Part shown: positions 5,878-60,052 of the stretch, piece after piece
Layout: the number at the start of each line of letters is the position of its first letter
How positions within the stretch are numbered: position 1 is the stretch's first letter
Assembly (NCBI GenBank): GCA_025823825.1
Contig: GCA_025823825.1_4720.1
Direction: 5' to 3' (one strand)
Origin: a phage
Length of the DNA stretch: 64,000 nt
Program-made: the position numbers and the translations under genes
The notes under the pieces: generated by a model
What the model was told of the DNA's origin: nothing
Seen by the model: the letters and a program-made list of their open reading frames with translations, nothing else
The model's database searches: none

Positions 5878-5942
5878 CGCAAAGGTAACATAACCCTCCT
5901 CCTTCCCTCACGGGTTGGAGGAGGGCTTATGCTGTTATGCTA

Positions 5943-10194: not shown

Positions 10195-10305
10195 AGTGTT
10201 GTCCTATACTGCGATGATTGAGATATCGGATGCCGGATGTGTGTTGCCATCAGGTGGTACGTACAGAAACACCCACAGATAAAACAGTAGCTTCTCTAAC
10301 TTCAA

Positions 10306-10971: not shown

Positions 10972-11026
10972 TGTATACCTCGTTCCTATTCTCAAAAAGG
11001 AAATTTCATACGATGACGCCATAGCA

Positions 11027-11056
11027 GCTCCTCCTTCCCTTACGGGTTGGAGGAGC
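11027..11056 (-). terminator. intrinsic terminator-like stem-loop (GCTCCTCC...GGAGGAGC)
   Basis: 8-bp GC-rich stem followed on the minus strand by a T-rich tract, downstream of 11065..11571. Confidence 0.5.
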
Positions 11057-11064
11057 ATACTTAA

Positions 11065-11571
11065 TTACTCGCTGATAACCTCAACGGAATTGGGATCAGC
11101 GATCATCGCACGGTCAGTAGAACAATTGAAGAAGACCATGCCGACACCATCGCCGTTCGAGTTCAGGGTTGAACTTACGTAAGACAGGGTTGGTTTATTC
11201 ATGCGGTAGAAGCGTTCGCTGGTAGCGGTATTGAACCCCAGATCAACGTAGTCTTTCACCGTGGTATACAACTGTGTGGATTCGAAAACGGTTACCGGAG
11301 AGTCGACGGTAAACTGACTACCTTCATCCACAACCAGAACTTTATCGTTCCAGATTTCAGTGGTTGAAAACTTCGGTTTCCAATGTTCGAATTCCTGGGT
11401 TGCTCCCCAGCAGGAATACACAGCGAGATTGCTGTTCTTCTCAACCGGTTTCAATCCCACCAGTTGTGTCAGGTCTTTATCCAGGTTCGGTAAGCCTTCC
11501 AGCGTAGCGCACCCACCCAGAGAAAGTACCATCAACATACCAAGAATAATCGCGCAGAGTTTCTTCATCAT
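11065..11571 (-). CDS. putative lipoprotein
   Basis: N-terminus MMKKLCAIILGMLMVLSLGGC has a signal peptide with lipobox-like LGGC. Confidence 0.6.
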   Translation of the reverse strand: MMKKLCAIILGMLMVLSLGGCATLEGLPNLDKDLTQLVGLKPVEKNSNLAVYSCWGATQEFEHWKPKFSTTEIWNDKVLVVDEGSQFTVDSPVTVFESTQLYTTVKDYVDLGFNTATSERFYRMNKPTLSYVSSTLNSNGDGVGMVFFNCSTDRAMIADPNSVEVISE

Positions 11572-11619
11572 TAGATTTCCTTATGTGTTAACGGAAGTGA
11601 CTTCCATAAGGATTGATGA

Positions 11620-12009
11620 TTACTTTTTGAGCGCTTTAAGTTCTTCTTCCAACGCTTCCACTTTTGCCGTAAGCTTCTGTACTTGTTTGATTAATGGAAC
11701 CACCAAACGTTCGTACATAACACCTTCAGCGACGAGTCCGTTAGAAGAAACGATAGCGGGGTCATCTTCTTCGGTTGCATCACGCCAGTGCACGTACTGC
11801 GGTGCGATCTCACCAACCTCTTCAGCAATCAACCCATACCAACCCCAATCCTTGTTGTCTGCTTCACATGTGGAACGATACCAAACAGGACGCATCTCCA
11901 ATACTTTATCCGCTTGTTCATCCGTGATATTCTCGATATCTTTCTTATAGCGACGCGACGACGTTGAACGAAACACATTGTTGATCCCAGAAACAGGACT
12001 GATATACAT
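11620..12009 (-). CDS. S74-type intramolecular chaperone domain protein (free-standing)
   Basis: SRRYKKDIENI...WYGLIAEEVGEIAPQYV...VMYERLVVPLIKQVQKLTAKVEALEEELKALKK matches the layout of the C-terminal chaperone domain of endosialidase-type fibres. Confidence 0.6.
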   Translation of the reverse strand: MYISPVSGINNVFRSTSSRRYKKDIENITDEQADKVLEMRPVWYRSTCEADNKDWGWYGLIAEEVGEIAPQYVHWRDATEEDDPAIVSSNGLVAEGVMYERLVVPLIKQVQKLTAKVEALEEELKALKK

Positions 12010-12058
12010 GTTAGCCCCGCTGGTTGTAGTGCTAATGTCCCATACCGCAAATCCGCCG

Positions 12059-15000: not shown

Positions 15001-15418
15001 TAAGTTGTACAGCGCTCGTGTTACTAACAACGAGATACATCTGACAGTTAAGAACGCTGGATGCACCTTCAGTAGGCACCGGCTTATATCTTTCCGGTGC
15101 GCTGCAAACAGCGATCAGAACACCCTGATCGTCATACAGACCGATTTCACGTACCCAGAATCCACCTTGGTTTACAGGAATAATACCCTCAACAATAATC
15201 CTGGTTGTGTCATCCGTATCGACACGGATATTAGCAACTTCCCCACGATAAACTTCGTGTACGAGCGCTGTTTGACCAACAGCCGGTGTCGGTATCGACC
15301 CGTTACCATCGCCAACAGCAAAATGTGTGATTTTTAGTTTCTCGCCACCAGGAAGTAGTGCGGCGGCGATACGTTCAGCGCCTTTATCGGTAATGACCGT
15401 TTTATATGTTGTACTCAT
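12059..15418 (-). CDS. long tail fibre protein, P2 gpH-like N-terminus with tandem fibre repeats
   Basis: N-terminus TVITDKGAERIAAALLPGGEKLKITHFAVGDGNGSIPTPAVGQTALVHEVYRGEV and block IANTEFVMRAIASLIDSSPEALNTLNELAQALGNDPNFATT resemble P2 gpH; about ten repeats of ...GNAATATKLQTARTIGGVSFDGSANIDLPGVN... Confidence 0.85.
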   Translation of the reverse strand: MSTTYKTVITDKGAERIAAALLPGGEKLKITHFAVGDGNGSIPTPAVGQTALVHEVYRGEVANIRVDTDDTTRIIVEGIIPVNQGGFWVREIGLYDDQGVLIAVCSAPERYKPVPTEGASSVLNCQMYLVVSNTSAVQLKVLDNAFLPDATTNTRGLTILSNAIDSDDETKSATPKAVNNVRKQLPVVASNIRDRTSGRVALPGMFGYGAILTDVKNFSGSAGVTEFLTWVKAATPGMYQVSQPAGNNKIIPGVVFDGLIEIKYISSSRNSSGPQYEEKGIFYFGVNGDFWYNRYHTTGDGYLVGWENLKVDVEALRRLIALKADLNNPVFTGIPAAPTAADNDSSQQIANTEFVMRAIASLIDSSPEALNTLNELAQALGNDPNFATTVTNALAGKQPLNALLTALSGLATSANKFPYFTGTDKVALAAITSTARALLSQSSIEGMQTTLGLTASLFRRFRGQLPTDANLNTYGPVEASVGIWSKQTSTNADAAHNFPEANAVGYIEVLPAGQFGGTQRYTVRTGNIYVRSLTASWNGVDGPWGEWLKAGNAATTATKLATARTIGGVSFDGSANIDLPGVNKAGTQNTSGNAATATKLQTARKIGGVAFDGTADIALPGVNAAGNQNTTGNAATATKLKTAVTIGGVSFDGSASINLPGVNAAGNQSTSGNAGSATKLQTARTIGGVSFDGTANIDLPGVNKAGNQSTSGNAATATKLQTARKINGVAFDGTTDISFSINVLASMGRVTALANATQGSNTGIQMYEAYNNGYPTAYGNVVHLKGATAVGEGEILIGWSGTSGAHAPAYLRSRRDASDANWSEWAQIYTSKDSIPGVNTTGNQNTTGNAASATKLQTARTIGGVSFNGTANINLPGVNTTGNQDTTGNAATATKLKTARTIGGVSFDGSANINLPGVNAAGNQNTSGNAATATKLQTARTISGVAFDGSQNITLTAKNVGATACPTGWLITGDNNSSITTSSFITLLQNQGAFNTRAWVARCSFAAADSAYIPDSETKCGIIPLAGAVIEVVSFGMTNYTIRVTTATTSSVSGAKTNSEFIYSYDNYNGSTNSPGWRRCYNSKNYSVNLSSYVTERQLTGYDNNLDIIANTLIVKKWE
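12580..13790 (-). repeat. in-frame tandem repeats (~28-40 aa units) within the tail fibre gene, two blocks
   Basis: Repeated ATKLQTAR(T/K)IGGVxFDG motif in the translation; antisense shadow ORFs also repetitive; coordinates approximate. Confidence 0.6.
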
Positions 15419-15424
15419 GGCGTT

Positions 15425-15952
15425 TTATCCCGGGTAAATAGTGATGGTGTCACCAACGATAGTTGTAGCACCGGCGTAAAGATACGCTGGTGATGCCTCA
15501 CGTTGGTTTGTCACGATAAGATCCAGTCTCCCACGCCAAACCACGGAGGTATTCGCGATGGGAATCGAGATCTTCTTGGAAGTATCGTCACGAAAATTAA
15601 TGGCGGTAGCAAGGGTAACTGAATCAAAATCAACGTCGGGTTCAAAGTTGAATCCGTATTGATCTGAAATAGCTTGAATAACCGCTCTTATGGTTGTTGT
15701 TTCAACCGACTCCAAAACGATTTTTATCGGTATTCCTAGAAATGCTTTCGCGATATCACGTCGTGTGTAAGTGATAAAACTTTCACCACACCACCTTGTT
15801 CCTTCATTTGCTGTGACGATCACTTTTGCCCTGTTAGCACCAGAACTCCCATCCAGGGTTAAAGTGAGATCGGAGTTGCTGAATACACTACCGTTACGTT
15901 GGTTTATCAACGTAATAAGTTCGTCTTTCCATGGTGGGTAAAGTGAACGCAT
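15425..15952 (-). CDS. fibre adaptor module protein (shared N-terminal module only, ~175 aa)
   Basis: Start ATG 15952 (MRSLYPPWKDELITLINQRN) with GGAGGAGG 8 nt upstream; TAA is in frame with and 6 nt upstream of the fibre ATG. Confidence 0.55.
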   Translation of the reverse strand: MRSLYPPWKDELITLINQRNGSVFSNSDLTLTLDGSSGANRAKVIVTANEGTRWCGESFITYTRRDIAKAFLGIPIKIVLESVETTTIRAVIQAISDQYGFNFEPDVDFDSVTLATAINFRDDTSKKISIPIANTSVVWRGRLDLIVTNQREASPAYLYAGATTIVGDTITIYPG

Positions 15953-15992
15953 ATGCGCACCCTCCTCCAATAATCAAATTAAAATGCAAAAC

Positions 15993-16020
15993 GCCTCGAA
16001 ACCAGGGTGCGATTCGAGGC
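15993..16020 (-). terminator. intrinsic terminator (GCCTCGAA...TTCGAGGC plus T-rich tail)
   Basis: 8-bp stem, 12-nt loop, followed on the minus strand by GTTTTGCATTTTAATTT. Confidence 0.55.
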
Positions 16021-16063
16021 AAACGTAAACAGTCTTAACGACCGCATAAAATTCCGCGCATAT

Positions 16064-16084
16064 TACCCCCCCCCCTCGACGAAG
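16064..16084 (-). repeat. C10 homopolymer with flank TA-C10-TCGACGAAG (copy 1)
   Basis: Ten C at 16066-16075; same flanks as the C11 tract at 34212-34222. Confidence 0.7.
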
Positions 16085-16107
16085 CGAGGTAGAGGAGGAT
16101 AACACGA

Positions 16108-17862
16108 TTATGCTGCTACATACCCAGGCCAACGTTCTCTTGGCCAGTTTGTTGCGCCCTGTCCAACGTTGTCCTTACCAGAAGTTACATTACTTACATC
16201 CCAACCACTAAGATCCTGGTTAAATGCGGTGTTGTTACGCATCATGAGGTCGATATTACGTAATGATTGGGTATTCCAGCCGGAAATGTCTTGGTTGAAT
16301 GCCGTGTTGTAAGCAAACATGTTAACAACGTTTTGTAATTTTGAAGTGTTCCAGCCGCTAATATCGCCATTGAACTGCATGTTCGAGAACATACTGCTAG
16401 CATCGATAAGACTATCTGTTTTCCAGTTAACCAGCTTGTTCTCATCAAGTGCGTTGCAACTACTGAACATGTAACTCATGTTGTTAACTTTGGATACATC
16501 CCATTTATCTAACCCGTTACCAACGAACTCGTAACAAGCTTGGAACATCCAGCTCATGTCGGTAACCTGGCACACATTCCATTTGCTAAAGTCGAGGTTG
16601 AGTTTTGCGCATCCGGAGAAAGTTTTATACATACTGGTGATACGACTAACATCCCATTCTTGAATGTTAGGATCATTAAGTATAGATAAGAATTGGAACA
16701 ATCCGTCTAACGACGTCCATTTCTCTGGAATACGGTTTGGTACTGTACGGAGCGATGAAAGGTTATTGGTTGACGGAGAGCGGAACATACCGTTATCCCA
16801 ATTTACGATTTCCGTAATGTTGTACCCACGGATCGTTTGGCGTCCATTACCATTATACACAGACCCTGTTGCAGTTATTGTATATTCGTTTGTATCAGCA
16901 TACGTATATTCAGCCTGTGTAGGCCACTCACCTATTACATCCCTATTCCCATCACCCCAGTCAATGGAAATATCTATCCAACCATCAAGATCTAGGGTAA
17001 CGGTCCCGCCATTGGTCTTCAGGATGTATTTACCTGCATTGTCGGTATAATAACAAACAATCATCGCACCGTACAGGTTACCAATTTGCCAATCATCCTT
17101 TTGAGTTACCGCGATTTGTGCTGTACCACGCTGTAAGAAAAGTACCGTACGGTTCTCGTCAGTCTGTAGTGCGGTTAGTGCTTGAGTCTTATCATCGTCG
17201 GTAATTTCACCGGCTTCCATTAAAGCACTTAACATTCTTTCGAAGTACTCGATAGGCAACTGAGGTCCTACCGACATATCAACTGATGGAACAGTGAGAT
17301 CATCCAATGCTGCTGCCGTTGCGAGGACTAATGATCCCTTGGCGGTGTCTGTTTCTTGGAGGTAACGCAGTCCCGTAATCTGGTACGCTTGAATGATTGT
17401 AATCAGATCCAGTGTATCGTTAATGACCTGTACTTGTAAATGTCCAGACCAAACATAGCTGCTTTCAGCAATCGGTAATTCGACCGACTGAATACCCGAC
17501 GTTTCAAAACTGATCTTCTTATTAAGATCGGCTTCCAGGAAATCAACAGCTAGGTCGAAATTTATACCGTACTTCTCAGCGATGGAATCTACAATGTTCC
17601 TGAAAGCAACATCGGTACTTACGATGAAACGTAACGGGATCCCGGTGAACGCGTTGGCAATATCTCGACGAACATACGTGAGCGACTGCTCGAAGAAATA
17701 AGGACTGTTATCTCCAGGTTTGATGGTTACCTGGCATACTTCAGGATGTTCAGCTGGAATGAAAGATTCGAATTTAACGTCGGTTTCCTTCAACGATAGC
17801 ATGTTCTTCCGGTTTACCAACGCCAGAAGATCAGCTTTCCACCCAGGATAAACTGTAGACAT
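16108..17862 (-). CDS. tail fibre-like protein with shared N-terminal module and C-terminal BspA-like (DUF285-type) repeats
   Basis: Start ATG 17862 (MSTVYPGWKADLLALVNRKN) with GGAG upstream; C-terminal repeats WDVSxVxxMxxMFxxxxxFNQDISGWN. Confidence 0.65.
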   Translation of the reverse strand: MSTVYPGWKADLLALVNRKNMLSLKETDVKFESFIPAEHPEVCQVTIKPGDNSPYFFEQSLTYVRRDIANAFTGIPLRFIVSTDVAFRNIVDSIAEKYGINFDLAVDFLEADLNKKISFETSGIQSVELPIAESSYVWSGHLQVQVINDTLDLITIIQAYQITGLRYLQETDTAKGSLVLATAAALDDLTVPSVDMSVGPQLPIEYFERMLSALMEAGEITDDDKTQALTALQTDENRTVLFLQRGTAQIAVTQKDDWQIGNLYGAMIVCYYTDNAGKYILKTNGGTVTLDLDGWIDISIDWGDGNRDVIGEWPTQAEYTYADTNEYTITATGSVYNGNGRQTIRGYNITEIVNWDNGMFRSPSTNNLSSLRTVPNRIPEKWTSLDGLFQFLSILNDPNIQEWDVSRITSMYKTFSGCAKLNLDFSKWNVCQVTDMSWMFQACYEFVGNGLDKWDVSKVNNMSYMFSSCNALDENKLVNWKTDSLIDASSMFSNMQFNGDISGWNTSKLQNVVNMFAYNTAFNQDISGWNTQSLRNIDLMMRNNTAFNQDLSGWDVSNVTSGKDNVGQGATNWPRERWPGYVAA

Positions 17863-18088
17863 AAGCACTCCAATCATGGGGGCGAACGCCCCCCATCAGT
17901 TAAATGATCGTTTACGTCGCGTAAGGGTAATATAATTGCTGTGAGCCATATCAGAAGTTCACAACATTCTGAATCATAAGGTTACGTCGTTGGAAACAAA
18001 CCGATACAGATTCTTCATAGAACATTGAGATGATGGAAACCTAATTCGTACCATGAAAGCCGCAATAAAAAAAAGAAAAATAGGAAAA

Positions 18089-23201: not shown

Positions 23202-23309
23202 CTTGACATCCTTTTATATTGGATTGGTTGCTAATAATTCAAGGTGAAGCTGATTACTGCATTGCTTCACCTAAGTAATATAGCCGTGAAAATTAATGTA
23301 TTAACCCAT

Positions 23310-33619: not shown

Positions 33620-33878
33620 TTACGCCAGGCGGTACCACAATACCGGTACGAATCACAGCAGCAACTTCCTGCATGCCCTTACCCTTCAACGCATAGGTTT
33701 CATGTACCACATTACGTCGAGTCGTTAATCCAACAAATTTACATACAACCATGTTGTTTTCTGAAAGATAAGCGGTGTCGAGTTCACCGTGCAACAATTC
33801 TTTTTCTTTGGTATCAATACCTAATAACGCAATTTGATAAGCAGAAAGTTTCCAATAACGCATAATCGTCCTATTCAT
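33570..33878 (-). CDS. hypothetical protein (102 aa)
   Basis: Minus-strand ORF overlapping both neighbours; start uncertain. Confidence 0.35.
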   Translation of the reverse strand: MNRTIMRYWKLSAYQIALLGIDTKEKELLHGELDTAYLSENNMVVCKFVGLTTRRNVVHETYALKGKGMQEVAAVIRTGIVVPPGVSDNLDEVLHGTRKTAR

Positions 33879-34698
33879 AAACTATCAAATATTCTGAAAC
33901 CAAGTTTCTTGTTTCTACTTTTGCCGAAATCGTTCTTCGTACAGTTACAGGGTACAATTTTGTCGCCGAACTATAAATCTCTTCAGTCAACGCACAAGCA
34001 CTGTTGCTAATGATTGTAGGAATTCCCCGCGAGCGCAAGTTGTCAGCCTTTTCTGCAAGATAACGATGATCGTCTAATGTAAACCCCTCTTGAGTATAGC
34101 CCGTAAACGATGCGGTGGGGGAAATGGGAATATAAGGAGGGTCGCAATAAACGACGTCACCCGGAACCACCTTTTCAAGATGCTTCTGGAACCCACCACT
34201 TACAATTTCTACCCCCCCCCCCTCGACGAAGGCAGCCTGAAGATGGTTCGCTGCCAGACGCAATTCCTGTTTCGGGAAATAGACGGTCTTATACCGCCCA
34301 TGCGCAACATTAAATAAACCATCACGATTATAACGACATAAGCCATTGAAACCGTAACGGTTTAAATACATGAAGCAAACTGCGCGTTCCCACGGATCTT
34401 CAGCGCGGTTAAAACGTTCACGTATCTCGTAGTAGCTTCTGACGTCGGTAGGATCCGTTTGAAAAAGACGTTCCACTTCTTCGATGAAAGATTCTGGACG
34501 CGCTAGCAACGCAGACCATACTGAGAGAATATCCTCATTCGCATCACCTATCGAATACGCTGGGTACTTAAGAGCAAGCGTAACAGCGCCGGAACCAACG
34601 AATGGTTCAACAAGACGCTTTCCTTTAGGTAACACTTTTTCAATCTCAGGGATAAGCCTGGTTTTGTTCCCAAGCCATTTAAGAAATGTTCTGCTCAT
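33871..34698 (-). CDS. dam: Dam-type DNA N6-adenine methyltransferase
   Basis: N-terminal FLKWLGNKTRL and EPFVGSGAV, catalytic motif VVYCDPPY, NRYGFNGLCRYN block; contains a G11 run encoding EGGGV. Confidence 0.85.
   Translation of the reverse strand: MSRTFLKWLGNKTRLIPEIEKVLPKGKRLVEPFVGSGAVTLALKYPAYSIGDANEDILSVWSALLARPESFIEEVERLFQTDPTDVRSYYEIRERFNRAEDPWERAVCFMYLNRYGFNGLCRYNRDGLFNVAHGRYKTVYFPKQELRLAANHLQAAFVEGGGVEIVSGGFQKHLEKVVPGDVVYCDPPYIPISPTASFTGYTQEGFTLDDHRYLAEKADNLRSRGIPTIISNSACALTEEIYSSATKLYPVTVRRTISAKVETRNLVSEYLIVYE
34210..34231 (-). repeat. C11 homopolymer with flank TA-C11-TCGACGAAG (copy 2), inside dam
   Basis: Eleven C at 34212-34222 on plus strand, G11 on the dam coding strand. 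Confidence 0.7.
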
Positions 34699-38976: not shown

Positions 38977-39604
38977 TGATACCTTCTATTAGTTGTACAG
39001 CAACTTCTTTTTCGGTGCTATAAAAGAACTTGCGGTGGAACTGAACAAGAAGCTTTTCGAATTTACATTGAACGATCTTTTTGCGTTCGATATGACCCAG
39101 GGAGAGCAAAGCACCCATGCAACGTACCGCTTGTTCGAGAACTTGTTTCGCGGTATCGTGATCGTCCGGTAACGGTAAATCTTCCTCATCGTCTTTAGCG
39201 ATAAGGCGTCTGATGATGTTATCGATACGTATCTCATCACCGTTAATAAAAGCCCCCTTCTCCCAGTCATCGAATCGTTGATGGATTCGACGTTGTAAGT
39301 TGGCTCTGTCTTCCATTAACTCTTTCAACTGGCTTTCTAAGTGGGATACGGTACGGCGGTCGGTTTCAGTGAAGTTTTCCGATTCTTTGTACCACCAATC
39401 ATTACGCGATAGTAAATCGTTAACGCGCGAAATCGTCCGACGACACTCACTAACAAGCCCATCACCATTCGGTAGCTCCGTGCCGAAATAGCATTTGTAT
39501 TTATAACGCATAACACGGATTAAACGTTTCGCTAGAAAACCTTGCCTTTCCAGTTTCTTCTTCAGTTGTGTGTATTTCTCTTCTTTTGTTTCCATTAATT
39601 CCAT
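38963..39604 (-). CDS. hypothetical protein (213 aa)
   Basis: Minus-strand ORF in AT-rich block. Confidence 0.45.
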   Translation of the reverse strand: MELMETKEEKYTQLKKKLERQGFLAKRLIRVMRYKYKCYFGTELPNGDGLVSECRRTISRVNDLLSRNDWWYKESENFTETDRRTVSHLESQLKELMEDRANLQRRIHQRFDDWEKGAFINGDEIRIDNIIRRLIAKDDEEDLPLPDDHDTAKQVLEQAVRCMGALLSLGHIERKKIVQCKFEKLLVQFHRKFFYSTEKEVAVQLIEGINEVK

Positions 39605-39993
39605 GATGTTGTACCTCGTTCAGCAATCAGGAGAGTCGTGGTTGTGCTTTTCACTAATCTATTAAAGTCTTGATATATCCGCCTGAGGGATGGTTTCAAA
39701 TCACAATAACGGCTGAAATAAACCTTCAAGTCATCTTTTGTCACAGTCTCCGTATTTATTTTCGTAGAAACACCGAGATCGATAAACTCTTTTCTTAATT
39801 GGGATAATTCATCAAGAAGTCGATGGTGGCTTAGATAAATAACAGATTTATCGGATAACAACTCGCCGGTTATCCGGCTCTGGCGTTCATCGAAATATTG
39901 GAGCCGCCATTCAATTCGCTTACGTAATTTATCAAGTAAATCAACAAAAGCGGTATAGCTGTTAACGGCTAGGTTAACTTGACTCGTTATCAT
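39595..39993 (-). CDS. hypothetical protein (132 aa)
   Basis: Minus-strand ORF in AT-rich block. Confidence 0.4.
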   Translation of the reverse strand: MITSQVNLAVNSYTAFVDLLDKLRKRIEWRLQYFDERQSRITGELLSDKSVIYLSHHRLLDELSQLRKEFIDLGVSTKINTETVTKDDLKVYFSRYCDLKPSLRRIYQDFNRLVKSTTTTLLIAERGTTSWN

Positions 39994-42558: not shown

Positions 42559-43539
42559 TCAGTAACAGTTATAATGGGTTCCAAGCCGCTCCGGTTTTCT
42601 CAGAAGACTATCTTTAAGCGGTACGACGTCGATATCAACGTTTTCTGAATAATAACCATTAGAACTACCATACCAACGAATAACAACACATCCTTTTGCT
42701 GTACGAATATGGTAAAATGTCCATCGCGTACGTTTGCAAAAGTCGTCATCCTCGTCTCTTTCCTCGGTTCTTTCTTCAGCGCTAAGTATCTTCTCACCAA
42801 TAATGTCGTTAAGATCGCCATCGATGTCTTCAAGGTACACTTTTTCACAGCAATCTTGCTTATGGCAGAATTCAACAACGTTCCCATCGCCCCGATAGAA
42901 AAGAAGGGCAATGCTGTATTGTAGCTGTTCGGCCGTTAAGTCTGTCGCGCAATACAAACTTTGATCTTCGGTTATCACCAAGACATTGTTGATTACGTGT
43001 CCGGCAAGCGCTCCGATCTTATTTACCGTGATAATCGGACGAACGGGTTCAGGTTGAACGATCGGAATACGAACACAACCAATTAAGGCCATCCGTCCTT
43101 TCTTTGGTCTAACCGCAAGGTAAGGTGATTTTCTTGGGTGGTTATGCAGACGTATTTCTAATTCGTCAAATTTAATCCCGTATATACCTAAGAAACGATC
43201 GAACAACCGATGAAACTCATCTGTTGCTTCTTTCAACGTTATGGTGTCTACCGTGAGTTTATGTCCCCTGAACACCCGGGTTATATCGATAACGTCGAGT
43301 GTTTTAAAATGTATTTCCGTAAGGGGGTGATTTGTATTTTCCAGGTATGTAATGGTTCTTTGAACCGCGATTTTAGGTGACGCACCTTTAAAACGTTTCA
43401 GGTATTTAACACGATAGCGTGTATGATCTGATGTTAACATTTTAATCTCCTCTCCCGACTTCAGAGAATTCTTAAAATCCGTTAGTTTTGATAGATGAGG
43501 TAAGACGGCATAAAAGCCTCCCGTAATGGGAGGCTTCAT
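42559..43539 (-). CDS. hypothetical protein (326 aa)
   Basis: Minus-strand ORF. Confidence 0.5.
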   Translation of the reverse strand: MKPPITGGFYAVLPHLSKLTDFKNSLKSGEEIKMLTSDHTRYRVKYLKRFKGASPKIAVQRTITYLENTNHPLTEIHFKTLDVIDITRVFRGHKLTVDTITLKEATDEFHRLFDRFLGIYGIKFDELEIRLHNHPRKSPYLAVRPKKGRMALIGCVRIPIVQPEPVRPIITVNKIGALAGHVINNVLVITEDQSLYCATDLTAEQLQYSIALLFYRGDGNVVEFCHKQDCCEKVYLEDIDGDLNDIIGEKILSAEERTEERDEDDDFCKRTRWTFYHIRTAKGCVVIRWYGSSNGYYSENVDIDVVPLKDSLLRKPERLGTHYNCY

Positions 43540-52575: not shown

Positions 52576-53262
52576 TTAACACATGATTTCACCATGTTTC
52601 TTTTCGACATACGTATAAACATCATCCAAATAAGCAATGAGTTTATCACGATCCGCACAAAGCGATTTAATCGCCGCAATCTCTTTCATATAAAGCTGCT
52701 GACCTAACGCTGGATACGTAATCCAAGCGTAGCCGTCAGGCGCAAATTTAGAAATAAGATAATCGGCGGTTTCCTGTAATGCGAACTCTTTGCTCATCTG
52801 ACCGTAACGATGTTCGATTGCGCGGATACCAAAACGTTCGCTATCAAGACGACCCATATCCGCCAAACGAAGCACCTGAGAAGCAACCGAACTACGTGGA
52901 CCAGAGTACGAGGCACGATGTTCGGCAATAAGTACGCGTATCTCTTCGATGTCTTCCGGTGTGAAAATATGCTGCTCGTTACGAAGCAGGATAACCGACG
53001 CACGAATACCCCCGATAAGGTGGTGGTAGGTTCTGTTTTCATGGCAAGCGATATCATGCATAAAAGCAGCTGTTAATAGACGGCGGCGTTCGGTAGGTCT
53101 AATAATCCCGACCACATCAGCAAGTTCATTTGCCAGTTCAACAACAGCAAGCACATGTTCTTCTTGATGTGCAAGATCGTTCTTCCGAATATTTTCAATT
53201 ACTTCAGCGCGTGTTTCCTGAGATAAGAAATTTAAACAATCCAACGAATATAAAGATTTCAT
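52576..53262 (-). CDS. HD-domain phosphohydrolase
   Basis: HQEEHVLAV ... AAFMHDIACHE consistent with an HD motif. Confidence 0.6.
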   Translation of the reverse strand: MKSLYSLDCLNFLSQETRAEVIENIRKNDLAHQEEHVLAVVELANELADVVGIIRPTERRRLLTAAFMHDIACHENRTYHHLIGGIRASVILLRNEQHIFTPEDIEEIRVLIAEHRASYSGPRSSVASQVLRLADMGRLDSERFGIRAIEHRYGQMSKEFALQETADYLISKFAPDGYAWITYPALGQQLYMKEIAAIKSLCADRDKLIAYLDDVYTYVEKKHGEIMC

Positions 53263-53405
53263 CGCACGTACCTCTTTGAATCTATTAATAAATTTTCTTT
53301 ACTCACGTAAGTAATATAGCCGTGAAAGGATTTGTGTTGGCCCGTTTCGATGCCCATCGTATTTTATGGATTGTCGAATGACGTCATTTTAAGGGACATC
53401 CCCGG

Positions 53406-53442
53406 CCTCCTCCCCAGGAAAGGTGTGGGGAGGAGTTTTTAT
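53406..53442 (+). promoter_or_regulatory. GC-rich stem-loop plus T5 upstream of the helicase gene (terminator/attenuator-like)
   Basis: CCTCCTCCCC...GGGGAGGAG followed by TTTTTAT on the plus strand, at the divergent switch region. Confidence 0.4.
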
Positions 53443-53470
53443 CATACATTCTATTAAATCGAGCGCGATT

Positions 53471-55552
53471 ATGTTGGATAGAATCAATCGTCTAATGAAC
53501 CGAATAACGGTTAAAAATCAGAGTAACAATACCGTGCATATCGGGGGTATCGATGCCTGGCGTCTTTCAGATGACATTCAGCGAATATGGGGTACCTCCC
53601 GATTTATGAAACATATGTTTCGTAATTTCTCTTCTAGTGGACTCAGCCTCCACAACTTTTACCTCCCCGATTTCGTTTATATTCTCGAGACGATCATCGA
53701 AGCAAAGAATACCCGCAGTAACAAACGCATGCTGAAACACCTTATTGAGGTACTGCTACAGGAAACCTGGTTGCAAAATACCACAATCGAGCAACCTGCA
53801 ATCCTCGATAAAGCACGCATGAACAAAATGCTAACGCTCTCTTTGTTCGATTATCAAGATGAGTTTATCGACATCTATAACCGTAACGTACCTAAATACC
53901 GACTGAAAGGATACGTGTGTGCGATGGGTGCTGGTGCGGGTAAAACAATCACCGCACTGGCATTAAGCTCCGCAATGAACGTCGATGTATTTGTGGTCTG
54001 CTGTCCTAAGAACACCATGCGTTCAGCATGGCAATCCGATGTAAACAAAGCCATCGTTGACCCTGCAACAGAAACCGCGTTCTGGTCAGATACGATGCCA
54101 CCATCACAGCTGCAGAAAAGCGATAAGTACTATTTTCTGCATTATGAATCGATGGGTTTATTAAACGATGTAATGATCAAGCATAAACGCACAGCGAAGC
54201 GCGTGTTGATCGTGGTTGATGAAAGCCATAACTTCAACGACAAGAACAGTCAACGTTCCCAACGACTGGTTGATCTCGTACAGACGATGCGTCAGACCAT
54301 GAATGCGGATGTGCACGTCTTGTTTATGTCAGGTACACCTGTTAAACAAATGGGTTCTGAGATGATCCCATGTTTAGGTTGTATCGACCCGATGTTCCAA
54401 GGACAGGTGGTCGATAGCTTCAAAGCGATTTACGGTTTAACCAGCAGTCGCGCTAACGATATCCTCAGACATCGTCTTGGGTTCATGATGCATGTCGTAC
54501 CTAAAGAGGCTTACCGTAAAACCCGTCCGGAAGTTCAGGATGTTTACGTGAAGCTCCCTAACGGTAGCGATTATACCATCTCAAGTATCCGCGACGACAT
54601 GGCGATATTTGTACGCGATCGGGCGAAGTATTACAAGGATAACTGGGGACACTACAGAAAGATTTTTGATGACGCCTTGGACTACTATCGTAAGACTATT
54701 CGTACCGACGGAGAACGTAAAGAGCTATCTCGATACGAATCGATTGTTGCTCGTTTCCAGAAAGGTTACGACCCCGTCAGAGACAAAGAAGATGCGATGT
54801 TCTGCAACGCGTTTGAAAAACGTTCCATCATGCCGGTTCTTCCTTCTGATTTAAGGATTGCTTTCAAAGACGCTAAGAGTGTCATCAAGTACGTTGGGTT
54901 GAAAATTCAGGGTGAGGCGTTGGCCCGTGTTCTCGGTGCAGCCCGCATTCGGTGTCATGTCGATATGGTGGAGTACATCGACTTCGAAGGGTATATCAAC
55001 AACGCTGAAGCCAAGGTGTTGATCTTCACGTCGTACGTTCAGGTGGTTGAGCGTGTCGACAACATGCTTCGTGATGCGGGTTTCTTACCGGAACCCATTT
55101 ACGGGAAGACCAACAAAAACATCAACCAAATACTTGCTCGTTTACGCGACGATCCCGACAGCGGCCCCGCTATCGCAACATTTGATAGCTTAGCTGAAGG
55201 GGTTCCGATGTTGATGTGTAACGTGGGTCTCTTCTTGAACAACCCATGGCGTTCATCCGATGAAATCCAAGCCATCAGCCGTCTCGATCGTGTAGGGCAA
55301 ACGCAACCGGTTCGGATTTATCGTTTCATGTTAGATACGGGAAGCGAGGGTAACGTTTCTACACGTAGCCACGAAATCATGGAGTTAAGTCGGCAGCTTG
55401 TTGAAGAAATCACGGGTGTCAAATACGTGGTGAACAAGCAAGACGATGTTAACTTGCAAGAAACGTTGGCGATGGAAGGATACGATCAATACGTTACCGT
55501 AAACACCACGGAATACGATATTAAACCACGACCTGCGTTCTTGGAATGGTGA
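53471..55552 (+). CDS. SNF2-like (SF2) helicase
   Basis: Walker A-like GAGAGKT, DExH-like VVDESHNF, SGTP motif III, C-terminal QAISRLDRVGQ signature; start set at first ATG. Confidence 0.75.
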   Translation: MLDRINRLMNRITVKNQSNNTVHIGGIDAWRLSDDIQRIWGTSRFMKHMFRNFSSSGLSLHNFYLPDFVYILETIIEAKNTRSNKRMLKHLIEVLLQETWLQNTTIEQPAILDKARMNKMLTLSLFDYQDEFIDIYNRNVPKYRLKGYVCAMGAGAGKTITALALSSAMNVDVFVVCCPKNTMRSAWQSDVNKAIVDPATETAFWSDTMPPSQLQKSDKYYFLHYESMGLLNDVMIKHKRTAKRVLIVVDESHNFNDKNSQRSQRLVDLVQTMRQTMNADVHVLFMSGTPVKQMGSEMIPCLGCIDPMFQGQVVDSFKAIYGLTSSRANDILRHRLGFMMHVVPKEAYRKTRPEVQDVYVKLPNGSDYTISSIRDDMAIFVRDRAKYYKDNWGHYRKIFDDALDYYRKTIRTDGERKELSRYESIVARFQKGYDPVRDKEDAMFCNAFEKRSIMPVLPSDLRIAFKDAKSVIKYVGLKIQGEALARVLGAARIRCHVDMVEYIDFEGYINNAEAKVLIFTSYVQVVERVDNMLRDAGFLPEPIYGKTNKNINQILARLRDDPDSGPAIATFDSLAEGVPMLMCNVGLFLNNPWRSSDEIQAISRLDRVGQTQPVRIYRFMLDTGSEGNVSTRSHEIMELSRQLVEEITGVKYVVNKQDDVNLQETLAMEGYDQYVTVNTTEYDIKPRPAFLEW

Positions 55553-55647
55553 TTAAGAAGCCCTGCCGTCAAGCAGGGCTTTATGCTGCGTTTGTTGCAA
55601 GATCGTATGACGTATATGCGTTGTACTTATTTAAAAAGGCAGAATAA

Positions 55648-57102
55648 ATGAAACTCAAACAAAGCTGGAAAGACGAACTTCTCGCGTTAGTAAACAACAA
55701 AAACAGTTTACAGCTGACATTAGACGACGTAAAATTTGAACTAACTGAACCGGTAAGCGAAGTGCCCGGAACAGTCGTCGTTACGATCAAACCGAACGAT
55801 GATAGCCGTTACTTTAACGAGCAGTCTCTGACCTACATCCGTCGAGACATCGCTAAAAACTTCACCGGGATCCCGTTACGTGTTATCGTTAAAAATGATA
55901 CCGTCGTAAGGGATATCATCAATACGATTGCTGAACGTTACGGATTGGTATTTGACACAACCGTTGACTTCCTCGAATCAGAGCTGAATAAGCAGATTAC
56001 GTTCGAAGACACCGGTATTAAAGACATTACGGTTCCGGTTGCAAACACGTCTTATGTTTGGGCTGGTAATCTTCAGTTCAATATCGCTAACGATACGTTA
56101 AGCTTGATTACGATCATCAAGGAAACCAATCTTACGAATCTGGTTTATCTGGATGGCGTTGAAGCTGACACAACCGGATCGTTATTATTAGCAACGGCCT
56201 CGATTATCGACGATAACGGAAATACCGAAACAACTGAAGGTGTCCTTGATGCCGAGTACTTCCAGAATGTCCTGAATGTCATGGTTCGTTATGGTGATAT
56301 TACCAGCGAACAAATGCAACAAGCAATGCAGACAATTAACCAAAACGAAGACGTTCGTGAAGTGGAGGTTAAGTCATACGGCGACTCTGAGCTGTTGGTA
56401 ACCACAAAGAAAGATTGGGCTATCGGTAACCTTAAGGGCGCTATGGCAGTTGTTCGCAACGCTCAACCGAAACCAATTCAGTACATTCTCAAAACGAATG
56501 GCGGCTCCGTTACACTAGCATTGGACGGTTGGACAAATATTTCCATCGATTGGGGTGATGGGAATAAAGCAACATTACCAGGCGGACAAACTCGCGGATT
56601 CCACGAATACAGTGACGGTACAGAACGTACGATTGTAGCTACTGGTGTCCTCTCAAACCCTGAAGCACCAACACAGACACAAACCATCAGCGGCGATAAC
56701 ATCACTGAAATCGTTGACTGGAACAACGGATTACCGCAGGCTGTACAATTAACGGGATTAACCAGTTTGATTAAGGTTCCCGATTATATCCCGTCATACT
56801 GGACAACGTTGGAAAGTTTGTTCGAGAGCTGCTCATCGATAAACGACGTAAACATCACGAAATGGAATACCGGTAACGTCACATCAATGAAGAATTTGTT
56901 CTTTGGCTGTAACGTCTTCAACCAACCGATCATCGTATGGGATGTTACCCATGTAACAAATATCGACAATATGTTCTCGGGATGTTCGGCGTTCAACCAG
57001 GATCTAAGGATGTGGTCATTCCCAGCGGATACTTCCCGCAACAACTACGATAACGGTGCTACAGCCTGGCGGTCAGAGTATCGTCCAAGCTTCGATTTGT
57101 AA
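55648..57102 (+). CDS. tail fibre-like protein with shared N-terminal module and C-terminal BspA-like repeats (remote, opposite-strand paralogue)
   Basis: N-terminus MKLKQSWKDELLALVNNKNSLQLTLDDVKF... paralogous to 16108..17862; C-terminal ...VFNQPIIVWDVTHVTNIDNMFSGCSAFNQDL. Confidence 0.65.
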   Translation: MKLKQSWKDELLALVNNKNSLQLTLDDVKFELTEPVSEVPGTVVVTIKPNDDSRYFNEQSLTYIRRDIAKNFTGIPLRVIVKNDTVVRDIINTIAERYGLVFDTTVDFLESELNKQITFEDTGIKDITVPVANTSYVWAGNLQFNIANDTLSLITIIKETNLTNLVYLDGVEADTTGSLLLATASIIDDNGNTETTEGVLDAEYFQNVLNVMVRYGDITSEQMQQAMQTINQNEDVREVEVKSYGDSELLVTTKKDWAIGNLKGAMAVVRNAQPKPIQYILKTNGGSVTLALDGWTNISIDWGDGNKATLPGGQTRGFHEYSDGTERTIVATGVLSNPEAPTQTQTISGDNITEIVDWNNGLPQAVQLTGLTSLIKVPDYIPSYWTTLESLFESCSSINDVNITKWNTGNVTSMKNLFFGCNVFNQPIIVWDVTHVTNIDNMFSGCSAFNQDLRMWSFPADTSRNNYDNGATAWRSEYRPSFDL

Positions 57103-57117
57103 AAAAAAAAAAAAAAA
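57101..57117 (+). repeat. A17 homopolymer starting within the stop codon of 55648..57102
   Basis: Seventeen consecutive A; reads as T17 on the minus strand directly after the stem-loop. Confidence 0.8.
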
Positions 57118-57129
57118 TAGTTAGCATAT

Positions 57130-57162
57130 CTTCCTCCCTACCCATAACGGGCGGGGAGGAAG
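57130..57162. terminator. bidirectional intrinsic terminator between convergent genes
   Basis: Stem CTTCCTCCC / GGGAGGAAG flanked by A17 upstream and GTTTTAT downstream. Confidence 0.6.
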
Positions 57163-57180
57163 GTTTTATGGCGTTATAGC

Positions 57181-57519
57181 TTAGAACCAGAGTTCTTTCA
57201 TGAGGTAGGCTTCCATATCGTAGATAAGCCACGCATCGGGGATTTCTAAAGGATCGTCTTCGGTTAAGGTCAGCATGTGCAGGGCGAACGCACGCTTGAT
57301 ATCTTCCAACAGCTTATCATCACCGTAATCCTCGGGTAGTTTACGGTCAACCAGCTGGGTTTGTTTATAGACGTCGCGGAACGCTTCAGGGCTGTGTTTG
57401 TCCATCGGGAATTGTTCAGCAGCCTGAACCATCGTCAACGTCCAGCTTACAACATTGTAACGCTCACCGTTAATTTCACTGAACTGATCATCGATTAAAC
57501 AGATTTGTTGTACGTTCAT
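57181..57519 (-). CDS. hypothetical protein (112 aa)
   Basis: Last gene of a minus-strand operon, overlaps upstream gene by 4 nt. Confidence 0.45.
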   Translation of the reverse strand: MNVQQICLIDDQFSEINGERYNVVSWTLTMVQAAEQFPMDKHSPEAFRDVYKQTQLVDRKLPEDYGDDKLLEDIKRAFALHMLTLTEDDPLEIPDAWLIYDMEAYLMKELWF

Positions 57520-58409
57520 TCATTTTCTCCATTCTTATCTTGGTCGCAATCACACTCTTCGACGTCTTTCTTACTTAAACGTAAGACACCTAGTGCAGCA
57601 TGCTTGAGTTCTTGCAAAGCGCTTTTCAGCTGACCTTCTTCATCGAAATCAAAATACTTCTCGTTGTAGCTTAATGCCGGAATCATATTTACGAGAGGTT
57701 CGATGGCGGGCATCAGCATTTCAATGACGACCTTAGGATCGACAAAACGTTCAAACCCTTCAGGAAGTTTGCTCGCTACAACCTTATCGTTCTTGATGTA
57801 GAATTTGTTCTTGAATAGATCGTCAAGAATAGCATTCTCTTCATCCGTACGTTTTGCGTGAGGACGATCGATCATCTGCACAAACACACCACTCAACGCT
57901 TCAGGCAAAGTCGGATTTTCGCGAAGATAAGTTCCGGCCGGAATTTCAATGTCGATCTTCGTCCACTCAACAACCTGATGGTCTCGCGTATAGATGACGT
58001 CAACTTCCCATGCCAGACCATCAGCGCTTTCTACGGTGTAACGTGTTTTCGCCTGGCCTTCAGGAGCCATACGTTCGATCGCATCAAACATCTCGACTGG
58101 GATTTCGACTTCGCTTTCCGTTGCATCGCCTGGACCGCGATACACCTTCGTGGTCATGATGTATTTCGGTTCTTCGTTATCGATCTGTATAGCTCGTGCT
58201 CGTACTTGACCTTTCACACCACCAACGGCCGTGTTATCAAACAACCATTGATGTTGCACCATATGTTCGATTTTTGATGCGACTTGACGAAGACGTTCAA
58301 CACCGTCTTCGGCCAGTTTACCAAAGAAGACCAGCTCACGTTCCTGCTGTGTCTCACCACTTAACATCATTAAATTGGCGATTTGTTTCACGCCTCTTAC
58401 TTTTGACAT
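57516..58409 (-). CDS. hypothetical protein (297 aa)
   Basis: Minus-strand ORF. Confidence 0.5.
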   Translation of the reverse strand: MSKVRGVKQIANLMMLSGETQQERELVFFGKLAEDGVERLRQVASKIEHMVQHQWLFDNTAVGGVKGQVRARAIQIDNEEPKYIMTTKVYRGPGDATESEVEIPVEMFDAIERMAPEGQAKTRYTVESADGLAWEVDVIYTRDHQVVEWTKIDIEIPAGTYLRENPTLPEALSGVFVQMIDRPHAKRTDEENAILDDLFKNKFYIKNDKVVASKLPEGFERFVDPKVVIEMLMPAIEPLVNMIPALSYNEKYFDFDEEGQLKSALQELKHAALGVLRLSKKDVEECDCDQDKNGENE

Positions 58410-58477: not shown

Positions 58478-60052
58478 TTACAATTCAAAATCTTCATCGA
58501 TAACACGCTGGGTAAGCACTTTGTCGCTGAAGAACTCCACCTTGCGCTGATGGTATTTACGGTGCGCTTCGATAGAAGTACATACCAGATACCAGAACGT
58601 TGGCGTCATTCCTTCAAACTTTCCTTTCAGCTGACGCAGTCGTCCCAACACCTGAATGTTACCGGTTCGTGACCCCATCGCTAATGTCATGAACGTCATC
58701 ACCAAGTCAGGAAGGTCGATACCTGTACCTGCCGATTTCACCGTTGTAACGCTAATATCGTTATCCAGCAAGACCATGAAGTCTTCTTCAGCAGTATAAG
58801 GACCGATTTCTAACTCAGGGATACGTTCACTGAGATAATGCGACAACGACTTACACATATCGACGGTTGCACAATACACCAGCATCTTCATACCTTCCTG
58901 ATACTGGTTCATGAAACCCTTGATAATAACGGTATAGATGAAGTTAAAATACGCGAGTTTGAGTTGCTTGTTCTTCATGATAGACTGTTCGAATATCGTG
59001 TGCGAATAAGCTCCACCAAACCCTTTGTATCTGACTTTATCTGTACTGCGTAGTCGGTACGTTACCGCATTTACCGCAATGTATTTCTTGTATTCGCCTT
59101 TCGCATAACGGGCTTCTTTCGGATACATCAAATACAGCATCTGTTCGATAAACGGATCATCGGATACCGCTGTTGCCGACAGATAAATGATTTCCGGAAT
59201 ATTGGCGTAACACTTGACCTTAAACAAGAAATGCAATGCTTCGTGACACTCGTCATGAATCAGCAAACCTATGCCGGTCTTTTCCCAAAACTCAGCGGGA
59301 TGAAAGGCATATGGCGCAACGCAGTTATTCTTCTCGTAGTCCGCAATATAACGTTGGAACATGTTCAAGGAGAACAATGCGATTTTGAAGTCGAGTTCAC
59401 CTTGTTCAACCAAGGTTTGAAACTCCAACATACTGTAACGAGGAATGTCGGGATGCGGTGGATCCTCCTTAGCGTTCCCGCGTATCTCGATAACGTCCCC
59501 TGGTTCCATCCCGAAGAAGTTCAGCAGTGAGCTTCGCCAACCTGGCATGTATCTCGGCGACAGAATGATACCCGTCCGTACACCGCGTCGGAAGGTGATC
59601 TCCTGCGACATGGCCGTTTTTCCTGACCCCGTTTGAGCGGTGTTTAGGCTCATTCTGAAGGGGGTATCCTTACCCCCGTCCATGTACTCCAACCATTCTT
59701 GCTGATCTTGACGCCATGGAAACTTCCATTTCTTTACGAACTCCACTTCTTTACCTGGTACCGGATCGTGATAGACGATTTCCAACCACTCTTTTCGTAT
59801 CCCTCGGGAAAAGATAAAATCCAAAAACGATTTCAACTGTTCACGGAGTAAGTATACCTCGCTATAATCGCTTCTTGCCGCGGCATACGTGTTTATGGTA
59901 TCGGTAACCATTCTCCGTGTACGAGGGTCACGCCGTTTCCTCAGATGCAAACAACGGTCTCGAAGGTAATGGCCGATAAGATGGGCAAATCGAAGTCCGT
60001 ATCCGCTCAGCCTCATGCCGTGCGAGAAGACGTCGATACGAGCTAACTTCAT
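58478..60052 (-). CDS. SF2 (DEAD/DEAH-type) helicase
   Basis: Walker A AQTGSGKT, DExH box IHDECHE, motif VI-like QVLGRLRQ. Confidence 0.7.
   Translation of the reverse strand: MKLARIDVFSHGMRLSGYGLRFAHLIGHYLRDRCLHLRKRRDPRTRRMVTDTINTYAAARSDYSEVYLLREQLKSFLDFIFSRGIRKEWLEIVYHDPVPGKEVEFVKKWKFPWRQDQQEWLEYMDGGKDTPFRMSLNTAQTGSGKTAMSQEITFRRGVRTGIILSPRYMPGWRSSLLNFFGMEPGDVIEIRGNAKEDPPHPDIPRYSMLEFQTLVEQGELDFKIALFSLNMFQRYIADYEKNNCVAPYAFHPAEFWEKTGIGLLIHDECHEALHFLFKVKCYANIPEIIYLSATAVSDDPFIEQMLYLMYPKEARYAKGEYKKYIAVNAVTYRLRSTDKVRYKGFGGAYSHTIFEQSIMKNKQLKLAYFNFIYTVIIKGFMNQYQEGMKMLVYCATVDMCKSLSHYLSERIPELEIGPYTAEEDFMVLLDNDISVTTVKSAGTGIDLPDLVMTFMTLAMGSRTGNIQVLGRLRQLKGKFEGMTPTFWYLVCTSIEAHRKYHQRKVEFFSDKVLTQRVIDEDFEL

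Follow-up and report, generated by a model that had tools for sequence, protein, structure and literature searches.

Why should a helicase gene and a putative receptor-binding gene share a small plus-strand island inside a long minus-strand block of a phage genome? The question is raised by a stretch of phage DNA of 64,000 nucleotides (nt) (contig GCA_025823825.1_4720.1 of assembly GCA_025823825.1), which as a whole is called the window here. Two plus-strand open reading frames (ORFs), one of 693 amino acids (aa) counted from the first ATG (53471-55552) and one of 484 aa (55648-57102), lie within a minus-strand stretch of about 58 kb, and a greedy ORF call found no other convincing plus-strand gene between positions 5943 and 63656, the exception being a dubious 86-codon ORF at 21386. 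An original prediction had placed both ORFs correctly and had read the pair, bounded by stem-loops, as a helicase and a displaced fibre paralogue that arrived by inversion or insertion of a module. Here, we argue that the island is most probably what serves a Goslar-like chimallivirus as its normal transcription unit, or units, for two proteins of the virion. The unit is of a known kind, a chimallivirus virion helicase with a DUF7941 baseplate-filament protein, found in a new Goslar-like phage; what is new is that residues 184-484 of the second protein (905 nt) form a recombining cassette with sharp boundaries that is swapped between near-identical backbones. The argument is built on gene identities, synteny, a fold match, the allele pattern, the breakpoints and the conservation of hairpins, and it borrows virion association, copy numbers and the model of filaments and host recognition by analogy from the literature on orthologues in Goslar, phiKZ and RAY.

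The sole phage match of positions 53000-57600 in a megablast search was Escherichia phage vB_EcoM_Goslar (100% query cover, 91.2% nt identity), a nucleus-forming jumbo phage of 237 kb (Goslarvirus, Chimalliviridae). Over its full length, the window is collinear with Goslar 88.5-153.5 kb, except for a mosaic tail-fibre region and a few indels. The exact product of the second gene, a gp161-like protein, has no record in a large protein collection, and the nearest cluster representative in a protein search is 93% identical; by its sequence, the window represents a Goslar-like phage outside the collections searched. Seven Goslar-like genomes were compared, namely the window, Goslar, and five further genomes that were found through divergent gp161 alleles (L092 and L094 to L097). 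Goslar-like genomes, as contigs of 235-247 kb, are frequent in assemblies labelled Escherichia coli, Shigella, Salmonella and Enterobacter and in Logan/ENA data, and the group is far more widely spread than its single reference phage implies.

Identity of the two proteins

The first gene encodes a superfamily 2 (SF2) helicase, a class to which it belongs by its motifs and by the Pfam models of both RecA-like domains. ResIII scores 46.6 bits (cut-off 22.5) and Helicase_C 30.1 bits (cut-off 23.5), and Walker A (GSGKT), DESH, SGT and the motif VI residues Q600, R604, R607 and G609 are invariant across eight homologues. SNF2-rel_dom (31.7 bits, cut-off 24.9, below ResIII) and DEAD also pass, and the label 'SNF2-like' of the original prediction is a fair one. 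The protein matches phrog_62 (E 5e-89) and is 98.8% identical to Goslar gp160 and 32.8% identical to phiKZ gp203 across 94% of its length; in a search of 205 phage records, the homologues of RAY, phiKZ, OBP and EL were 29-39% identical to it across more than 90% of the length. These similarities identify it as the orthologue of the virion-packaged helicase of chimalliviruses, and its presence in the virion of this phage would be expected by analogy. Label-free mass spectrometry of the Goslar virion counted about 10.6 copies of gp160 (15 peptides) (bioRxiv 10.64898/2026.04.21.720040). phiKZ gp203 undergoes proteolytic processing and is packaged in the head; it co-pellets with DNA, and the phage can do without it in the laboratory (PMC12676376). 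A fusion of RAY gp131 to green fluorescent protein co-localises with capsids, the phiKZ record labels gp203, gp202 and gp201 structural proteins, and OBP gp262, encoded next after the helicase, is an internal head protein.

The second gene encodes a homologue of Goslar gp161 (78.6% identical, with the differences concentrated past residue 183). Pfam places DUF7941 (PF25613) at residues 4-182 (84 bits, cut-off 27) and DUF285 (PF03382), a BspA-like leucine-rich repeat (LRR) domain, at residues 386-467 (75.3 bits, cut-off 25). A Pfam search at E ≤ 0.01 found no tail-fibre family in this product or in its paralogue in the window, and a PDB sequence search with the gp161-like protein gave no match at E ≤ 1. 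A PKD-like domain had been suspected from a WGDGN motif in residues 230-385 and was dropped when no Pfam match appeared even at E ≤ 5. For an AlphaFold2 model of the protein (mean predicted local distance difference test score, pLDDT, 84.5), the sole significant PDB fold match in Foldseek was 9xqd_0, a chain of the phiKZ outer peripheral baseplate (E 2.5e-5, probability 1.00, 150 columns, TMt 0.57; the match gives neither the aligned residues nor the gene product of the chain). The DUF7941 module is predicted from this model to share the fold of the phiKZ chain.

According to a recent preprint, DUF7941 is a module specific to chimalliviruses and occurs in ten Goslar proteins including gp161; Goslar gp22 forms filaments, a phiKZ DUF7941 protein is placed in the outer peripheral baseplate, and the N-terminal domain of phiKZ gp127 is modelled there. 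Head-to-tail oligomerisation and baseplate attachment are proposals of the same work, drawn from what AlphaFold predicts and what gp22 shows in negative-stain electron microscopy. Three Goslar proteins (gp86, gp92 and gp161) carry DUF7941 followed by domains of the host-recognition type, a host-recognition fibre cloud is proposed, and gp161 was detected in the virion at about 111 copies (27 peptides) (bioRxiv 10.64898/2026.04.21.720040). The gp161-like protein of the window shares its N-terminal module with the DUF7941 filament proteins (Goslar gp22, gp23, gp86, gp92 and gp161; phiKZ gp126 and gp127) and the fold of that module with the solved phiKZ chain (PDB 9xqd), and its architecture is that of gp86, gp92 and gp161, whereas gp22 and gp23, which are abundant filament formers, are without the LRR part. 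A receptor-binding role is what we infer for it by analogy. The window encodes four DUF7941 proteins (6918-9530, 15425-15970, 16108-17877 and the island copy), of which that at 6918-9530 additionally holds PF23845 and PF23844, domains of a non-contractile tail sheath protein family. Unlike the others, the island copy is encoded apart from the remaining DUF7941 genes.

An alternative view of the pair starts from the helicase, the homologues of which in EL, PhiPA3 and Vibrio phages are annotated as 'DarB-like antirestriction'. It would be a packaged anti-restriction or anti-defence protein, the LRR protein an injected or surface-exposed counter-defence or adhesion factor, and the island a defence accessory module. 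That phiKZ gp203 is packaged, DNA-associated and dispensable in the laboratory agrees with this, and the fast evolution of the distal part of the second gene would suit a target in an arms race. However, the DarB-like annotation was made by similarity only, other records call the protein RapA-like, and the helicase is not fast-evolving, given its near-identity to that of Goslar and an nt identity of 83-99% across the Goslar-like genomes. The second gene moreover carries the baseplate-associated DUF7941 module, and about 110 copies per virion, as found for its Goslar homologue, are more in keeping with a component of external filaments than with an effector that is injected. We regard a defence module as unlikely.

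Conservation of the island layout

In Goslar (gp160-gp161, NC_048170, 142953-146585), the same genes are found in the same order and on the same strands, with the same three hairpins and with terminators annotated at matching places, and the intergenic counterpart of 53263-53470 is 99% identical. Goslar differs in having A11 in place of A17 at the island end, TCATG in place of TATG after the middle hairpin, and a fibre cluster without a second DUF7941-LRR paralogue. The five further genomes, with backbones 83-99% identical to the window, show the identical layout, so that the island is present in the same orientation in 7/7 Goslar-like genomes.

The likeness extends to distant chimalliviruses. 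In phiKZ (gp203-gp202-gp201), RAY (gp131-gp130), OBP (gp263-gp262), EL (gp166-gp165) and Noxifer (gp231-229), a full-length homologous helicase (29-39% identity) heads a counter-strand unit, followed by virion-protein genes where these are annotated; in these phages as well as in Proteus phage 10 and Klebsiella phage Eowyn, the helicase runs opposite to both flanking neighbours and has 0-3 co-oriented genes behind it. Among 53 evaluable chimallivirus helicase loci, drawn from 80 IMG/VR loci and from phage records with a single simple ORF caller and counted without Goslar's own loci, the upstream neighbour lies on the opposite strand in 31, and in 29 the helicase heads a closed islet with at most three followers. 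Counter-strand loci are scattered across most clades of the helicase tree. Since the helicase is counter-oriented in 29 of 53 such distant loci, its orientation is probably ancestral and not the product of a recent inversion. Small virion-protein units among non-structural genes are common in chimallivirus genomes.

The gene that occupies the slot after the helicase varies between genera. The followers are unrelated to the gp161-like gene in phiKZ and Noxifer (phrog_26200 and phrog_11065), in OBP and EL (PF12699-like internal head proteins) and in RAY (a glycine-rich protein); RAY gp130, considered as a DUF7941 relative, showed no similarity, its only Pfam hit being a sub-threshold Gly_rich_2. 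A DUF7941 gene also directly follows the helicase in Eowyn and its relative L012, and because these two form a separate clade of the helicase tree, the pairing of helicase and DUF7941 recurs. A helicase beside a receptor-binding gene had been called unusual in the original prediction; it is not so, since the helicase is itself a virion protein and its followers in phiKZ, OBP and Goslar are likewise, the two genes standing side by side because both encode virion proteins.

The suspected recent inversion or insertion of the two-gene module, with the stem-loops as scars or recombination sites, would account for the strand switch and the hairpin at each island end, for the stretch GGGGAGGA shared by the 3' arms of the two outer hairpins, and for the variation of the post-helicase gene between genera. 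It does not account for the synteny comparison that the original prediction had itself proposed and had named as grounds for refutation, which found the layout identical in Goslar and five further genomes and the orientation of the helicase kept in many genera. The GC content of the island equals that of its flanks, and the skew alone flips, following the coding strand. Only matches of 14-24 nt, as expected by chance, were found as flanking inverted or direct repeats, neither the ORF list nor Pfam yielded a recombinase among the ORFs of the window, and hairpins with CCTCC/GGAGG arms recur throughout the window as ordinary punctuation. A mobile or invertible element was rejected on these grounds (no flanking repeats, no compositional deviation, no recombinase, no presence/absence polymorphism), and a recent rearrangement of the pair is highly improbable. 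The idea of a module survives in another sense, in that the post-helicase slot differs by genus and the 3' 905 nt of the second gene are exchanged between phages.

Similarly, it is not the island copy that is displaced. The minus-strand ORF 16108-17877 is indeed a paralogue (48% identity across 447 aa; DUF7941 at 76.9 bits), its first ATG lying at 17877 and not, as predicted, at 17862; the term 'fibre' does not hold for either copy, since both consist of DUF7941 and DUF285/LRR parts without a tail-fibre Pfam domain, whereas the neighbouring gene 12059-15418 does carry Phage_tail_fib and Phage_fiber_2. The island copy is syntenic in all seven genomes, and Goslar has no counterpart of 16108-17877 in place, but gp092 (tail protein) and gp093 instead. 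The arrangement of the window is shared by GCA_961210045.1, and many 584-aa homologues in a protein search sit on contigs of 235-247 kb; two alternative fillings of the fibre cluster circulate, since Goslar has gp092/gp093 and GCA_961210045.1 and the 584-aa homologues have the paralogue type. The paralogues were also compared for recombination, as had been suggested; with 43-69% nt identity and a longest exact match of 21 nt, they give no sign of recent exchange, and recent gene conversion between them was rejected. The tail-fibre cluster as a whole (10246-18024) is mosaic relative to Goslar 97.8-108.0 kb, and its long fibre gene (12059-15418) matches Goslar in parts only (64-87%) and has internal repeats.

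Exchange of the distal part of the gp161-like gene

Between the window and Goslar, nt identity is about 89-98% in the helicase gene and the opening 550 nt of the gene behind it, drops to 60-84% between about 56300 and 57100 and rises again past the gene. Across 35 alleles, mean pairwise identity is 94.5% for residues 1-185 and 58-70% for residues 186-484. The region-by-region identity matrices of the seven genomes are incongruent. The window and L096 are 99.0% identical in the HD-hydrolase gene that flanks the island, 100% in the intergenic region, 98.8% in the helicase gene and 99.6% in the 5' part of the second gene, compared to 52.9% in the cassette; L092 and L094 are 97.8-99.5% identical in the backbone and 54.0% in the cassette. 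The closest cassette to that of the window is found in L094 (86.9%), of which the backbone is only 90-92% identical (intergenic region 94%), and the closest to that of L096 in L092 (75.7%, backbone 91-95%).

The junctions are equally clear. The window and L096 differ at one of 548 nt up to position 56195, and from 56196 onwards at roughly every second position; this 5' breakpoint lies directly 3' of invariant codons for GSLLLAT (residues 177-183), and the genomes become similar again precisely at the poly-A run that comes after the stop codon. Because the matrices are incongruent and the junctions sharp, the cassette 56197-57099 appears to have been exchanged between phages by homologous recombination, for which the DUF7941 coding sequence ending at GSLLLAT and the poly-A run with the terminator would serve as arms. 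Relaxed or diversifying point mutation in place, without any exchange, might be read from the graded alleles of cassette type A (65-87% nt and 73-93% protein identity), but it is scarcely credible, because gradual divergence cannot yield 99.6% beside 52.9% within one gene, the same step as between the window and L096 recurs between L092 and L094, and the grouping of cassettes (window with L094, L096 with L092) departs from that of the backbones.

Modular receptor-binding proteins combine a conserved N-terminal anchor with an exchangeable distal domain, as is general in the mosaicism of tail fibres and tailspikes. The gp161-like gene resembles them in its conserved anchor, sharp junction, divergent distal part and exchange between near-identical genomes. 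It differs from modular fibres in that the distal part is a BspA-like LRR (DUF285) and not a trimeric beta-helix or fibre tip, in that no chaperone or assembly gene stands next to it, and in that the anchor is the chimallivirus-specific DUF7941. By analogy, the mosaicism of the cassette indirectly supports a role in host recognition.

Hairpins, promoter-like elements and expression of the unit

The features of the locus and the related elements elsewhere in the window are listed in Table 1.

Table 1. Coordinates of the island, its hairpins and related elements in the window.
Feature	Position	Strand	Support
Promoter-like element TTCACGGCTATATTACTTA, 19 nt	53308..53326	-	second exact copy at 23272-23290 (-); kept in 7/7 Goslar-like genomes
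Upstream hairpin, GC-rich, 10-bp stem + T5	53407..53440 (stem-loop 53407-53435, T5 53436-53440)	+	-20.6 kcal/mol, z -2.1
SF2/SNF2-like helicase, 693 aa	53471..55552	+	Pfam, phrog_62, homology to Goslar gp160, phiKZ gp203 and RAY gp131
Middle hairpin, followed by TTTATGC	55557..55586 (stem-loop 55557-55582)	+	-18.0 kcal/mol, z -3.1
Conserved 5' part of the second gene, residues 1-183: DUF7941 N-terminal module, putative peripheral-baseplate anchor/oligomerisation domain	55648..56196	+	Pfam, Foldseek, alleles
Variable 3' cassette, residues 184-484: helical linker, beta-rich domain, DUF285/BspA-like LRR	56197..57102	+	Pfam, allele identity
A17 homopolymer overlapping the TAA stop	57101..57117		3' boundary of the variable cassette
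End hairpin at the convergent junction	57128..57164	both	-28.1 kcal/mol on + (z -5.4), -25.0 kcal/mol on - (z -4.6)
Paralogue, 589 aa, DUF7941 and two DUF285 stretches	16108..17877	-	Pfam, 48% identity to the gp161-like protein
GC-rich hairpins (often CCTCC...GGAGG) followed by (T)TTATGC(T/C)G	5897-5933; 19948; 26812; 43512; 45143-45113	+; -; -; -; -	
Further hairpin+TTATGC sites	51507-51486; 55557-55586; 57128-57170; 63685-63650	-; +; both; -	

The GC-rich hairpin with T5 that had been predicted before the helicase is present. Its place is between the divergent genes, 31 nt short of the start codon of the helicase; all seven genomes keep it, L092 and L094 with a compensatory A-U to G-C change, and Goslar has it annotated as a terminator. 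The stem runs directly into the U-run, as in intrinsic terminators. A 35-codon ORF that spans it is non-coding, the frame being broken by indels in L092, L094 and L095. Unlike the window, the phiKZ, RAY, OBP, EL and Noxifer loci have no hairpin upstream of the helicase, and none was found in 38 other chimallivirus loci. The middle hairpin shows a C-G to T-A compensatory change and a loop that varies in length and sequence among the seven genomes; it is a putative terminator of the helicase gene, and the second gene may also have a late start of the TATG type there. A second TATG at 55607-55610 is conserved in 7/7 genomes. All seven genomes keep the end hairpin, the stem of which is perfect in L092; it is probably the terminator for both converging transcripts. 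On the plus strand its stem is followed by GTTTTATGG (GTTTTAT), and on the minus strand the T17 run begins after a gap of 12 nt from the stem. The bidirectional terminator predicted at 57101-57162 is thus borne out as a stable hairpin on both strands, with a partial fit to the U-tract on each. Measured against shuffled controls by their z scores, the middle and end hairpins are well beyond the shuffles; both resemble a hairpin/U-tract terminator weakly, and a generic terminator scanner listed none of the three hairpins. No known RNA family reached its gathering score across the whole window. The A17 tract was likewise predicted correctly; the run is A10-A11 or interrupted in the six relatives, and its length cannot recode the second gene because the TAA stop is kept at any run length.

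The 3' end of the element TTCACGGCTATATTACTTA lies 45 nt upstream of the start of the HD-hydrolase gene (53262). Its exact copies stand 45-70 nt upstream of minus-strand gene starts, with 0.02 copies expected by chance, and it is a candidate promoter of a phage polymerase that probably drives the leftward block diverging from the island. A looser TATATTAC copy at 17927-17934 (-) precedes the DUF7941-LRR paralogue. As a promoter word, TATATTAC alone was discarded (three matches against 2.5 expected), only the extended 19-mer being significant. A shared operator ATCGTATGACGT upstream of both plus-strand genes was likewise discarded (12 matches at ≤ 2 mismatches against nine expected, not significant). 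Matches to sigma-70 promoters were fewer than in shuffles, a deficit that is expected because the phage uses its own polymerases.

Hairpins coupled to TATG occur 13 times in the window, compared to 4.5 ± 2.4 in dinucleotide shuffles. In phiKZ, the consensus of late promoters is 5'-TATG-3', with the G as start site (PMC4666361). The couplets could represent a terminator motif that is conserved, late promoters of the TATG type known from phiKZ, or a combination of the two. By this analogy, the element behind the helicase gene could end one transcript and begin the next, and the tenfold difference in virion copy number would agree with that; alternatively, the TATG motif may belong simply to the terminators. 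No other stretch of the locus is as conserved as the 208-nt region upstream of the helicase (53263-53470; 92-100% identity in the seven genomes). It is possible, though on balance doubtful, that this leader is a Goslarvirus-specific regulatory region in which the hairpin acts as a helicase attenuator or the source of a small RNA, and in which hairpin+TATGC elements serve as stop and start signals for the phage RNA polymerases. A plus-strand transcript from a conserved TTTTATGG (about 53368) may then end at the hairpin and U5 as a small RNA of about 70 nt, or continue into the helicase gene. If true, the attenuator would hold the dose of the packaged helicase to about a tenth of that of its neighbour.

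The reading of the island as a virion-protein unit would work as follows. The virion helicase gene would head a short unit of its own, running against the non-structural genes around it; its product, an SF2/SNF2-like ATPase, would be packaged in the capsid at low copy and presumably be delivered together with the DNA and the virion RNA polymerase. The DUF7941 module of the second protein would dock into the DUF7941 filament network at the peripheral baseplate, and contact with the host surface would fall to its C-terminal beta-domain and BspA-like LRR. Between the two genes, the hairpin after the helicase would act as a separator, allowing a different dosage of each, and that at 57128-57164 would close the unit against the converging block. 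Late timing and separate transcription of the two genes would fit this scheme.

Several points weigh against this reading. The timing and the question of co-transcription rest on inference. The islet layout is absent in 24 of the 53 evaluable loci, which leaves its ancestral state likely but not proven, and the ORF caller was crude (ATG starts only, 80 aa minimum). The upstream hairpin has no plus-strand gene before it to terminate and is absent from other genera. After the middle hairpin, the TCATG of Goslar replaces the TATG of the window, and hairpin+TATGC couplets also occur at convergent junctions with no gene following, where a promoter would be pointless. Finally, gp161 was not resolved in the Goslar cryo-electron microscopy maps, and its receptor-binding role is a proposal (bioRxiv 10.64898/2026.04.21.720040).

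Other differences among the Goslar-like genomes lie outside the island. The window has a D12-class N6-adenine DNA methyltransferase gene (33871-34698, -; Pfam E 2e-60) in an 850-nt insertion that Goslar is without, and two ORFs at 42559-43539 (-) and 39595-39993 (-) in segments without Goslar counterpart, one with DUF7448 and the other with no Pfam match; conversely, the window is without counterparts of Goslar gp108 and gp120. Adjoining the island, a non-virion SF2 helicase (58478-60052, -) has 524 aa in the window and 753 aa in L092, L094 (7826-10087, -), L095 and L096. The longer version has an in-frame insertion of about 228 aa inside Walker A (GSGK|ALALHTPV...IVTHN|TAMSQ), which bears the terminal signatures of an intein (Ala1 start, HN then Thr) and has no Pfam match; the window, Goslar and L097 are without it.

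For annotation, a plus-strand island of this kind is a normal feature of chimalliviruses, to be read as a virion-protein unit and not as a rearrangement. Goslar-like phages differ in their fibre cluster, where a second DUF7941-LRR gene alternates with a glycosidase-type DUF7941 gene, and the DUF7941-LRR gene of the gp161 type is a hot spot of recombination, its modules being very sharply bounded; two cassette types that have diverged deeply (about 53% nt identity) are in circulation on near-identical backbones. At the level of populations, this pattern lends indirect support to a recent proposal by which DUF7941 proteins with extra domains act in host recognition, and the exact junctions, after GSLLLAT and before the poly-A run, mark where cassettes could be swapped to retarget phages.

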